Positions 14,912-20,130 of a stretch of 64,000 nucleotides of DNA are shown piece by piece (the first letter of the stretch is position 1; the number at the start of each line of letters is the position of its first letter). A program made the position numbers and the translations under genes. Origin of the DNA: a candidate division WS1 bacterium (GTDB lineage: Bacteria > Armatimonadota > Zipacnadia > Zipacnadales > UBA5352); assembly GCA_003566775.1 (NCBI GenBank), contig PXBW01000079.1, positions 18,635-82,634 of the forward strand, given 5' to 3'. Under the pieces are notes generated by a model. That model ran no database searches. It was not told the origin of the DNA and saw only the letters and a list, made by a program, of their open reading frames with translations.

Positions 14912-16582
<1,671 letters not shown>

Positions 16583-16599
16583 TTATCGTGTGCGGCTGA

Positions 16600-16887
16600 T
16601 CAGCCCTCGCGCACTGCGAGGATATCGCTCTCGGTGATGATGAGGTACTCCTCACCTTCGATCTCGACCTCCGTACCGCCGTATGACGCGTAGATCACGA
16701 TGTCGCCCTCGTCGACTGCGACACCCATCGGCTCACCGTCGTCACCGATTTCACCGGGACCGGCGGCAATAACTTTGCCTTCCCGCGGCCGTTCCTGTGC
16801 GGCCTCGGGCAGGATAATCCCGCCCGCGCTCGTCTCCTCTGCCTCGAGCGGCTGGACAAGCACCCGGGCACCAAGAGGCTGAAGCAT
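16600..16887 (-). CDS. groS: co-chaperonin GroES (Cpn10)
   Basis: 95 aa. [28 protein letters not shown] is classic GroES. Sits 44 nt upstream of groL. Confidence 0.95.
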
Positions 16888-17930: not shown

Positions 17931-18120
17931 GGTACCCATATGATGTAAGAACATCTGAAGGGGCAGCATTAGATCGGAGGCGGCACGGGATGCCGCCTCC
18001 GATACGTTTAACGAGGCCGCTTCGTCTGCCGATTACCTGTACAAGAATCAAATGCAGGATTCGCCGCATGTTGGTGGAAATATCGCCCGCCGCGCATCAT
18101 GGTACGAGGGAGATTAACAG

Positions 18121-19401
18121 ATGGCCAGGTTGAACGTCGGCACAGGCAGCGGCAACAGGAGCAGTGGGGGAGGTGGATGCGGTGGAGCCGTGCTGGGGGT
18201 GCTTCTGGGGTTGATAATGATTCCGGTGGGCTTTTACGTAGCGTACCATGGTGAAGCGAGGCTGGTGGATCACAGTAAGGTCTTCGAGAGCGTAGAGATG
18301 TCGTCGCCGGAAGCTGCCGTAGCGATGGACGGCGAACTGGTCAAGTTCTCCGGCGAGCCGCAGGGGCAGTTTCTCACTATCCCGCAGGCGGGTGGCGAGT
18401 TTCTATACTGGACGAGGCAGTTGGAGGAGTACGTTGAGGAAGAGGACTCGGATGGTAATGTCGAGTATCGATGGCGCTCGAGACAGAGTGAGACGCACTG
18501 GGTGGATGCTTTTGAGATCGGGTCGATAAGCGTGCGCCCCGACGGCGCTCACCCTGTGGGGCGGCGGGAGGTTTACTCCGCCTACAAGCGCCGGTATGAG
18601 ACCAGCTTCCGCGAGAGTACACAGCCCGGCACACCAGAGGTCGGCGACCAGCGTGAGACGATCGATGTGCTGCGGGCATCGACACCGGCGATAGTGCTCG
18701 GGGAGATGTCTAACGGTAGCGTGCAGGGCGGGAGCAGCTTCATAGTAAGCACGCTCAATGAACAGCAGACGCAGGAGACCCTCAGGAGCGAGTACGTGGC
18801 GGCCTACTGGGGTCTCAAGGCGGGAGCGGTTGCTCTGATCTTCTTTGGGATAATGTCGGTATTCGGCCCGCTGACCAAACTTGTCGGATACGTTCCGCTG
18901 GTGGGAGACGGCCTGTCATGCGCATTCTCCGCAGCCGCGTTCGTCTTTGCTGTTGTCTCGGTGACGATCATCACGGTGTTCATGCAGGCGTTCTGGGTGC
19001 TTGTTGCACTTGCGCTGTTGGCGGTAGCTTTCATGATCTTCCGCGGCGTGACAACACCGCGCAATCGTCCGGGCTCTGAGGCTGAGATCCCAGCACCGGA
19101 CAGTTCACCTTCGCCCGGCGGTGCGACACCGCCCCCTCCGACGGGAGTGGCGCCCGAAGATGAAGCATCCCGGGCTGTCCCCCGGCCGGTCGAAGCCTCA
19201 CAGCCGGCCAAGCCGGTTGAGGATACACCTTCAGCACCGGTCGCACCCCCGCCAGGGGTAGCGGAGGAGCAGTCTGAGGATAGCGCCCCGTCACCGGGGC
19301 AAGAGGGGGATTCGGCCGGTCCGAAGTTCTGCGCCGGTTGCGGTTCGCGGCTGGTGCCGGGCGGCAAGTTCTGCGGTTCGTGTGGGGAGAACGTGCAGTA
19401 G
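18121..19401 (+). CDS. TMEM43/DUF1625-like membrane protein with Pro-rich linker and C-terminal double zinc ribbon
   Basis: 426 aa. N-terminal Gly-rich segment plus TM, then an ~200-aa soluble domain, a cluster of 3-4 TM helices, a Pro/Ser-rich linker, and KFCAGCGSRLVPGGKFCGSCG (zinc ribbon). Confidence 0.5.
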   Translation: MARLNVGTGSGNRSSGGGGCGGAVLGVLLGLIMIPVGFYVAYHGEARLVDHSKVFESVEMSSPEAAVAMDGELVKFSGEPQGQFLTIPQAGGEFLYWTRQLEEYVEEEDSDGNVEYRWRSRQSETHWVDAFEIGSISVRPDGAHPVGRREVYSAYKRRYETSFRESTQPGTPEVGDQRETIDVLRASTPAIVLGEMSNGSVQGGSSFIVSTLNEQQTQETLRSEYVAAYWGLKAGAVALIFFGIMSVFGPLTKLVGYVPLVGDGLSCAFSAAAFVFAVVSVTIITVFMQAFWVLVALALLAVAFMIFRGVTTPRNRPGSEAEIPAPDSSPSPGGATPPPPTGVAPEDEASRAVPRPVEASQPAKPVEDTPSAPVAPPPGVAEEQSEDSAPSPGQEGDSAGPKFCAGCGSRLVPGGKFCGSCGENVQ

Positions 19402-19446
19402 AGGCGGGTGGGGCGGCCAGATTACAGCAGCAGGAAGGGGTCCGTG

Positions 19447-20130
19447 ATGGATTACCAGATTCGCGGCACGGTGATGCAGAGTGTAGAGATCACGCTGGAG
19501 CAGGGGGAGACGGTGTACACCGAAGCAGGCGGTATGTCATGGATGACCGCGAACATCGAGATGAACGCGGAGATGAAGGGTGGCCTGATGCAGGCGTTGC
19601 GGCGGAAGGCCTCAGGCGAGTCGATGTTCATGACTGATTACACCTGCACCTCGGGTACCGGCTTCGTCAACTTCACGCTCGAGGTGCCGGGCAAAGTCAT
19701 CCCGCAGCAGCTTGCGGAAGGACAGAGTCTCATCTGCCAGCGAGATTCATTCATGGTGGCGGAGGCTTCGGTGGGCCTGGATATGCATCTGCACCGGCGG
19801 CTGGGAGCCATGTTCTTCGGTGGCGAGGGGATGATCCTGCAGAAGGTAAGCGGTCCGGGGCTTGCGTTCTTTGAGATAGACGGTGAGGTGGTGGAGTACA
19901 ATCTTCAGGCCGGTCAGGGGCTGAGGATCGATCCGGGACATATCGCGATGATGGACCCCACGGTGGACTTCAACATAACGCGTGTATCAGGAGTGAGGAA
20001 CGTGCTGTTCTCGGGGGAGGGTCTGTTTCTTGCGACGGTGACCGGCCCCGGACGCGTCTGGTTGCAGACTATGCCTCTGGCGAGTCTCGCGATGCGCCTG
20101 ATTCCGTATATACCGAGTTCATCAAGCTGA
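19447..20130 (+). CDS. TIGR00266 / AIM24-family protein (DUF124)
   Basis: MDYQIRGTVMQSVEITLEQGETVYTEAGGMSWM is the characteristic N-terminus of the AIM24/TIGR00266 family. About 228 aa. RBS AGGAAGGGG before the ATG at 19447; the ORF track begins at 19408. Confidence 0.7.
   Translation: MDYQIRGTVMQSVEITLEQGETVYTEAGGMSWMTANIEMNAEMKGGLMQALRRKASGESMFMTDYTCTSGTGFVNFTLEVPGKVIPQQLAEGQSLICQRDSFMVAEASVGLDMHLHRRLGAMFFGGEGMILQKVSGPGLAFFEIDGEVVEYNLQAGQGLRIDPGHIAMMDPTVDFNITRVSGVRNVLFSGEGLFLATVTGPGRVWLQTMPLASLAMRLIPYIPSSSS

Follow-up and report, generated by a model that had tools for sequence, protein, structure and literature searches.

Why would a bacterium encode a relative of the human disease protein TMEM43 right beside an AIM24 protein? 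The question is raised by a gene pair in a 64,000-nucleotide stretch of DNA from a candidate division WS1 bacterium (phylum Armatimonadota; contig PXBW01000079.1 of GenBank assembly GCA_003566775.1, positions 18,635 to 82,634 of the forward strand). We refer to this whole stretch as the window, and coordinates without a locus number are positions within it. The first gene of the pair, open reading frame 1 (ORF1; 18121..19401, + strand), encodes a 426-residue membrane protein of the TMEM43 family with four predicted transmembrane (TM) segments, followed by a proline-rich linker and a putative zinc ribbon at the C terminus. The second gene (ORF2; 19447..20130, + strand) encodes a 227-residue AIM24/TIGR00266 protein that is predicted to be cytoplasmic. 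To our knowledge, bacterial homologs of TMEM43 have never been studied, and we know of no function for any bacterial member of that family. No bacterial AIM24 protein has a known function either (PMC6677890).

From comparisons of sequences and gene neighborhoods, we lean somewhat towards the view that ORF1 and ORF2 are a dedicated unit for a membrane-anchored complex, in which AIM24 would be recruited to the tail of ORF1. The pair supplies a first partner that can be tested in bacteria for each of the two families, and the hypothesis that cytoplasmic AIM24 proteins are recruited to membrane proteins via short tails could be tested cheaply. The molecular activity of TMEM43, a human disease gene, is still under debate. 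The practical value of the pair is limited by its narrow phyletic spread and by the lack of a functional readout. Below, the loci that we compared have L numbers and the homologs of ORF1 have P numbers.

The two proteins and their domains

The initial annotation, made from the letters of the window, had placed the two proteins in the TMEM43 and AIM24/TIGR00266 families, and profile searches bear this out. ORF2 matches the AIM24 model (PF01987) over its full length (positions 1-205 of 205; 227.6 bits) and exceeds the cut-off for TIGR00266 (125.8 bits against 96.6). An ORF2 profile matches the Protein Data Bank (PDB) entries 1YOX (E = 5.9e-60) and 1PG6 (E = 5.2e-31), and the AlphaFold2 model of ORF2 (predicted local distance difference test score, or pLDDT, of 78) has TM-scores of 0.70-0.86 to these two structures and matches no other fold in the PDB. 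ORF2 is 58-63% identical to orthologs from archaea and from organisms named as Anaerolineae or Anaerolineales. It is an ordinary full-length member of the AIM24/TIGR00266 family.

ORF1 scores 34.4 bits against the TMEM43 model of Pfam (PF07787, formerly DUF1625; cut-off 23.3; E = 1.9e-8), and the scores of its homologs reach 57.9 bits. The alignment is partial: just residues 167-287 of ORF1 align, to positions 116-242 of the 250 in the model, and this hidden Markov model (HMM) misses the N-terminal half of the protein, with the first TM segment and the greater part of the loop domain. A search of PDB sequences with an ORF1 profile returned noise only.

The domain order that had been described for ORF1 (a TM segment, a soluble domain, a TM cluster, a proline-rich linker, and a CxxC-x10-CxxC zinc ribbon) is supported by hydropathy and by motifs. 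All of the following features are on the + strand. The protein begins with a glycine-rich segment (residues 1-22; 18121..18186) that is predicted to be cytoplasmic, has a pLDDT below 50, and contains two lysine or arginine residues and no aspartate or glutamate. TM1 (residues 23-43; 18187..18249) is indicated by hydropathy and by a helix at residues 21-47 of the AlphaFold2 model. It leads into a hydrophilic domain of about 185 residues (residues 44-227; 18250..18801), confidently modelled as all-β and similar to an oligonucleotide/oligosaccharide-binding (OB) fold, which is predicted to be extracytoplasmic. The TM2-TM4 cluster (residues 228-307; 18802..19041) has hydropathy segments at about residues 228, 265, and 291 and modelled helices at residues 214-255 and 265-311; it is the part that matches PF07787 and the most conserved part of ORF1. 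Beyond it, an RGVTTPR anchor is followed by a disordered, proline-rich, acidic linker, together predicted to be cytoplasmic (residues 308-400; 19042..19320; pLDDT of about 50-57). Three arginines lie immediately past TM4 (in the stretch RGVTTPRNR), and residues 323-400 of the linker (78 residues) include 20 prolines, 13 aspartates or glutamates, and 3 lysines or arginines. Among ORF1 homologs, the linker varies from 69 to 152 residues. The protein ends with the putative zinc ribbon, KFCAGCGSRLVPGGKFCGSCGENVQ (19321..19398), whose cysteines are C404, C407, C418, and C421.

None of these four cysteines varies among the 12 closest homologs, and 33 of 37 members of the ORF1 family have the CxxC-x10-CxxC spacing. 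(The tail of one member, P0135, has two ribbons.) AlphaFold2 models the segment with short strands and a pLDDT of about 90. Given the motif, its conservation, and this model, we predict that the C terminus of ORF1 is a zinc ribbon. The zinc-ribbon HMM match of the window's protein is below threshold (DZR, PF12773, at 17 bits against 27.3); three relatives pass the cut-off of 25 bits for Zn_Ribbon_1 (PF13240), namely P0135 (47.5 bits), P0181 (25.1 bits), and P0164 (25.3 bits).

Four hydropathy segments are present in ORF1 and in most of 110 TMEM43-like representatives. Lysine and arginine are enriched at the N terminus of ORF1 and just past TM4, and this charge bias fits a topology with both termini inside. 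Considering also the cysteine-rich zinc site and the published topology of TMEM43 (PMC12295021), we infer that ORF1 spans the membrane four times and that both of its ends are in the cytoplasm. The cytoplasmic location that had been suggested for the zinc ribbon is therefore the most likely one.

In ORF1, a G-C-G motif lies right before TM1 (18175-18186; residues 19-22), and its G19, C20, and G22 are found in each of the 12 closest homologs. Many homologs read GCGGGCG at this position, and the conserved cysteine is predicted to be cytoplasmic. The tails of several homologs (P0006-P0010; alignment columns ~425-470) contain one or two copies of (S/T)-(E/D/A)-F-M-R-P-A-(E/Q)-P, which may be a linear docking motif; the window's protein has none. 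In a comparison with BFVD, the AlphaFold2 model of ORF1 (mean pLDDT of 79) resembled uncharacterized proteins of 211-270 residues from the giant viruses Klosneuvirus, Satyrvirus, Hyperionvirus, and Harvfovirus (Foldseek E values of 1e-9 to 3e-5, but with low TM-scores of 0.2-0.45).

Conservation of the pair

The ORF1 family has few members and a sharp boundary. A word-indexed search found 37 proteins that are at least 39% identical to ORF1, and an exhaustive search yielded 14 clusters at E ≤ 1e-30 and 261 clusters at E ≤ 1e-10. Judged by the names that its homologs bear, the window belongs to Armatimonadota or a close relative. In every one of the 14 Armatimonadota-type loci with DNA downstream of the membrane gene (the window, L001-L003, L005-L013, and L025), an AIM24 gene lies 32-49 nucleotides past it. 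In the truncated locus L004, the same AIM24 gene begins behind the membrane gene. The common flank in this clade is a divergent ileS-dksA-lspA-lgt block, with IleS proteins that are 78-82% identical among most of the loci. The flanks deviate in the window (which has a pilin gene and groESL upstream), in L025, and in L005, and the pair is kept in all three.

Eleven of the 14 loci have a second AIM24 gene in tandem (L001-L003, L005-L009, and L011-L013; for example, L001:6335-7739), while the window and L010 have a single one. In a neighbor-joining tree, the tandem copies form two paralog types, and the window's copy is of type B. The tandem duplication suggests that these AIM24 proteins form hetero-oligomers. 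We also considered whether the single AIM24 gene of the window might be a hybrid of the two paralogs that arose by unequal crossover. Along most of its length, the protein resembles type B in sliding identity, with no switch point, and this idea has no support. A triple AIM24 tandem is found behind an M48 metallopeptidase gene on a Flammeovirga plasmid (L109:2069-4124).

The strongest single observation for the pair is a distant locus, L104. Its membrane protein (P0181) is just 21% identical to ORF1, yet it has the same architecture of TMEM43 domain and zinc ribbon, and its gene is followed by an AIM24 gene whose product is 43% identical to ORF2. The genomic context is different: the GC content is 57% rather than 62%, and the flanking genes encode HicAB and UDP-sugar enzymes. 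The suggestion in the initial annotation that the two genes are a recurrent two-component module is thus upheld, by all 14 of the clade's loci and again by L104. A tblastn search of plasmids with ORF1 gave no match. We conclude that the pair is a genuine module but is restricted to certain lineages, which are uncultured and Armatimonadota-like except for at least one further lineage.

Does the AIM24 neighbor depend on the tail of the membrane protein? Among the TMEM43-like cluster representatives, a ribbon is present on only 6 of 110 (among the 150 top matches listed). Downstream of three of these ribbon-bearing representatives we found an AIM24 gene at L104, none at L105, and the end of the contig at the gene itself at L103 (P0171). 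Conversely, in ORF1 homologs that lack the tail (P0155, at L015 and L016, and P0157, at L017), the next gene encodes a PilS-like kinase instead of AIM24. These observations suggest that the zinc-ribbon tail and the AIM24 neighbor go together. The PilS-like histidine kinase of the tail-less loci (L015:6001-9484, L016:6001-9484, and L017:734-2662) has six TM segments, and it may be an alternative cytoplasmic partner of the same membrane scaffold.

AIM24 genes and their neighbors

We also surveyed the pair from the side of AIM24, in 80 metagenome loci whose orthologs are 52-78% identical to ORF2. The initial annotation had stated that AIM24 proteins are frequently found beside zinc-ribbon membrane proteins, and this did not hold in general. 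A TMEM43-like or zinc-ribbon partner is adjacent at 1 of the 80 loci (L025), and the orthologs that we sampled in Anaerolineales, Altiarchaeales, and another lineage stand alone. Clustering the neighbors of the 80 loci, in search of a general partner of AIM24, recovered lineage-specific synteny only (purine salvage genes, ATP synthase b/c, DegV, and Rho).

Instead, at 9 of the 80 loci, a ribbon is fused to the N terminus of AIM24, in the form M-x-CxxCG-x10-CxxCG followed by a linker rich in proline and alanine. The fused ribbons match Zn_Ribbon_1 (PF13240) at 32-35 bits, above the cut-off of 25. The loci with fusions of a zinc ribbon to AIM24 are L063 (3851-4714), L069, L075, L077, L080, L086 (3779-4732), L089, L093, L098 (147-1049), and L104 (5279-6157). 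The fusion proteins share an additional glycine-rich C-terminal tail, GG-L/I-N-x-x-x-G-x-L-x-GG, so they are probably one clade that descends from one fusion event. Because the ribbon and AIM24 are fused in one subfamily and adjacent in another, they appear to be functionally connected, which is not by itself proof that AIM24 binds the ribbon. The AIM24 protein of L100 has GYGPP repeats where others have the ribbon.

At about nine AIM24 loci from diverse lineages, one of them labelled Altiarchaeales, the gene directly downstream encodes a small protein of 56-105 residues with one or two TM segments (L020:5681-5914, L027:4734-5051, L061:4681-4914, L069:1072-1277, L072:1081-1299, L075:1085-1288, L089:4745-4921, L096:1766-1969, and L098:1050-1265). 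These genes often overlap the AIM24 gene or lie within 10 nucleotides of it. The small proteins have no match in Pfam and share a C-terminal motif, (D/H)Y-x-L-(E/D)-Q-(G/S)-x-E. They appear to be a membrane partner of AIM24 that has gone unannotated.

On plasmids, the contexts of AIM24 genes vary: we found them beside an SPFH-NfeD operon, as the triple tandem after an M48 protease, and before a membrane protein. In the first of these contexts, on the Deinococcus plasmid NZ_CP092192.1 (L106:1340-3681), the TIGR00266 gene is divergent to the SPFH-NfeD membrane-scaffold operon.

A proposed mechanism and its alternatives

How might the two proteins work together? In the arrangement that we propose, ORF1 would place its OB-like β domain of about 185 residues outside the cytoplasmic membrane, cross the membrane with four TM helices, and extend inside as a flexible, proline-rich, acidic tether of about 90 residues that ends in the zinc ribbon. 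Because ORF2 is a soluble, leaderless AIM24 β-protein, the ribbon and AIM24 should both be in the cytoplasm, if the topology predicted for ORF1 is right. The tail of ORF1 would then recruit AIM24 to the membrane, most probably through the zinc ribbon or beside it. Most of the relatives would recruit a pair of AIM24 paralogs in this way, which would probably form a hetero-oligomer. Through the complex, the domain that faces outward would be coupled to AIM24 as a scaffold or effector in the cytoplasm.

The eukaryotic members of the family provide some precedent: the AIM24 domain of the plant proteins PAWH1/2 binds the soluble domain of the membrane protein EBS7 and stabilizes the Hrd1 complex, and yeast Aim24 is tightly associated with the inner mitochondrial membrane (PMC6677890). 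By analogy, we speculate that the role of the pair might be to organize or stabilize a membrane or envelope complex, or to signal its state.

Several observations weigh against this proposal. The loci of the Armatimonadota-type clade are not independent; because most of them share one syntenic block, the independent support amounts to about three contexts plus L104. About 60 of the 80 close AIM24 orthologs lack both a ribbon and any obvious partner in the membrane, so AIM24 itself does not need a partner of this kind. At L105, the membrane protein (P0164) has a ribbon, and the next gene encodes a membrane protein that is not AIM24 and is followed by Tad pilus genes. When the AIM24 gene of L104 is read from its true start, its product has an N-terminal ribbon of the CxxC-x10-CxxC type, so that both partners at L104 carry a ribbon, and this fits pairing between ribbons, or a shared third target, equally well. 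As to the topology, AlphaFold2 merges TM3 and TM4 into one helix of 47 residues, with a pLDDT of 58 in the preceding stretch (residues 250-270), so the count of four TM segments rests on hydropathy and on analogy to the family. Finally, as far as we know, a great many bacterial proteins carry zinc-ribbon tails of this type.

What else could explain the pair? The two genes might cooperate without the ribbon being the dock for AIM24: ribbons could pair in trans, as a "double zinc ribbon," or bind a common third factor, and AIM24 could touch ORF1 elsewhere or act downstream without being stably bound. Besides the two ribbons at L104, this would fit the two tail ribbons of P0135, which match the double-zinc-ribbon model DZR at 38.6 bits, as well as the window's AIM24, which lacks a ribbon, and L105, with its ribbon and no AIM24. 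In contrast, the AIM24 neighbor is lost in the tail-less homologs, and in the window and 13 related loci just one partner has a ribbon, which implies that pairing of ribbons is not the general mechanism. We consider this alternative, the main one, rather unlikely but worth keeping in mind. A review describes TMEM43 as self-oligomerizing, with a pore-forming residue in TM3 and loop 2, and as linked to K+ conductance (PMC12295021). ORF1 could likewise oligomerize into a cation channel or pore, as has been proposed for mammalian TMEM43, with AIM24 as a cytoplasmic gating or regulatory subunit. It is in keeping with this idea that the TM2-TM4 cluster is both the best-conserved part of ORF1 and the part matched by Pfam; even so, we think that a channel is distinctly improbable.

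If the adjacency were inherited synteny without functional coupling, we would expect what is seen in the bulk of the supporting loci, which are one syntenic block of related Armatimonadota, and in close AIM24 orthologs elsewhere, which have unrelated housekeeping neighbors. But the pair persists across three flanking contexts with short same-strand spacers, and it recurs at L104 at 21% and 43% identity amid unrelated flanks. By our own estimate, with 1-3 AIM24 genes per genome, AIM24 would be the immediate neighbor by chance about 1 time in 1000 or less. We regard mere synteny as very improbable. An anti-phage or toxin-type module that disrupts membranes might be suspected from a two-gene cassette with a membrane protein, and L104 does lie beside a HicAB toxin-antitoxin pair. 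However, neither protein matches any family in PADLOC-DB 2.0 at E ≤ 0.01, the pair is flanked by housekeeping genes (ileS, lspA, lgt, and groESL) rather than by defense islands, ORF1 has no match on plasmids, and AIM24 is highly conserved even in archaea and Anaerolineae, unlike fast-evolving defense genes. A role in defense is extremely unlikely.

In a broader idea, the TMEM43 and AIM24 families would be ancient physical partners, and the bacterial operon would preserve their complex, with short ribbons on either or both subunits as the docks that hold an oligomer of AIM24 to a four-TM protein whose sensing domain faces outward. We think that this broader idea is probably wrong. If it were true, both bacterial families would gain their first mechanistic handle, and there would be a testable lead for eukaryotic TMEM43 (a gene for cardiomyopathy and hearing loss, whose product is in the RNF26 ligase complex of the endoplasmic reticulum, or ER) and for the AIM24/PAWH proteins of the Hrd1 ER-ligase complex and of MICOS.

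Gene signals and local context

The spacer between the two genes (19402..19446, + strand) is 45 nucleotides long, as initially annotated, and contains the ribosome-binding site of ORF2. The list of open reading frames starts ORF2 at a GTG at 19408; the start that is conserved in every homolog is the ATG at 19447. This ATG is preceded by the ribosome-binding site GGAAGGGG at 19433-19440, and ORF1 and ORF2 each have a ribosome-binding site of their own. ORF1 and ORF2 are in the same frame in the window, which might suggest readthrough of a stop codon or a split fusion gene. We rejected this explanation because the frame relation is 0, 1, or 2 at other loci.

According to Pfam, the upstream neighbor of ORF1 is a DUF1559/prepilin-type gene and the downstream neighbor of ORF2 is a convergent gene for an ACT-domain protein. 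Between the DUF1559 pilin gene and ORF1 is a perfect, GC-rich hairpin of 12 bp (17973..18003, + strand). Folding of the region 17931-18030 gave a minimum free energy of -44.2 kcal/mol (z = -4.3), and none of 200 shuffled sequences was equally stable. A consensus terminator scan did not flag the hairpin at 17973-18003, because its U-tract is weak. Nevertheless, it is likely to be a terminator and hence the 5' boundary of a two-gene unit. Given this hairpin upstream and the convergent gene downstream, we consider ORF1 and ORF2 to be a two-gene transcription unit.

The DUF1559 gene does adjoin the pair in the window, as the initial annotation had it, but it is not part of the module: at other loci it is not beside the pair (ileS is upstream there), and in the window the strong hairpin separates it from ORF1. 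We conclude that the pilin neighbor is incidental. A groES-groEL operon (14912-16887, - strand), some 1.2 kb upstream, gives the pair an ordinary housekeeping context. Its GroEL ends with the GGM repeat tail.

Comparison with known systems

A literature search found no searchable paper that names both AIM24 and TMEM43, or both AIM24 and "zinc ribbon." Several better-known systems have some of the same parts. ORF2 shares membership and fold with the rest of the AIM24 family, including PA3696 from P. aeruginosa (1YOX), SpyM3_0169 from S. pyogenes (1PG6), yeast Aim24, and the plant proteins PAWH1 and PAWH2. Those from eukaryotes act as peripheral partners of membrane complexes, namely MICOS and the Hrd1-EBS7 complex of ER-associated degradation, which matches the role that we propose for ORF2 (PMC6677890). 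Over 93% of AIM24 proteins have a single domain and most stand alone; in contrast, the AIM24 proteins described here are tied to a specific membrane partner and are usually duplicated in tandem. AIM24 has also been linked to TerD neighborhoods by Aravind and colleagues, according to a passage of PMC5822837. Among the Pfam neighbors of L001-L003 and L104, we found none of the ter genes (TerD, TerB, TerC, and TelA), and the window's immediate neighbors are the DUF1559 pilin and the ACT-domain protein.

The fusions of a zinc ribbon to AIM24 have the same parts as the pair, with a CxxC-x10-CxxC ribbon that has an FCxxCG signature, a linker rich in proline and alanine, and a domain of the TIGR00266 type. 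They provide a Rosetta-stone link between parts that are otherwise split over ORF1 and ORF2. The differences are that the ribbon is on AIM24 instead of the membrane protein and that the gene after several of the fusions encodes the small TM protein and not a TMEM43-like one.

Two other systems resemble ORF1 in their layout. MUL1 (of the GIDE/MUL1 type) has a TM segment, a β loop domain, another TM segment, and a C-terminal zinc-binding domain in the cytosol. The GIDE model (PF12483) nearly reaches its threshold in relatives of ORF1 (22.3 bits against 23.6 for P0181, and E = 0.021 for P0135), and a Pfam search gave no match to it in the window's ORF1. Unlike that of MUL1, the C-terminal module of ORF1 is a four-cysteine ribbon and not a RING, and nothing indicates ubiquitin-like chemistry. 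We view this as an architectural analogy, with remote homology as a possibility, and not as membership in the family. NfeD-SPFH (stomatin) operons encode a membrane protein with an OB fold beside an oligomeric scaffold partner. There is no sequence relationship to the pair, and the OB domain of NfeD is cytoplasmic and binds the partner, whereas the OB-like domain of ORF1 is predicted to be outside, so that this too is an analogy only.

The closest comparison is to eukaryotic TMEM43 (also known as LUMA), whose bacterial homologs were noted earlier (PMC3198171). Like the topology that we predict for ORF1, TMEM43 has TM1, a large non-cytoplasmic loop domain, three further TM segments, and both termini in the cytoplasm (PMC12295021). 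ORF1 differs in that just the C-terminal half of the Pfam model aligns to it, in that its gene has AIM24 as an operon partner, and in that it adds the proline-rich tether and the terminal zinc ribbon, an extension that is uncommon within the TMEM43 family.

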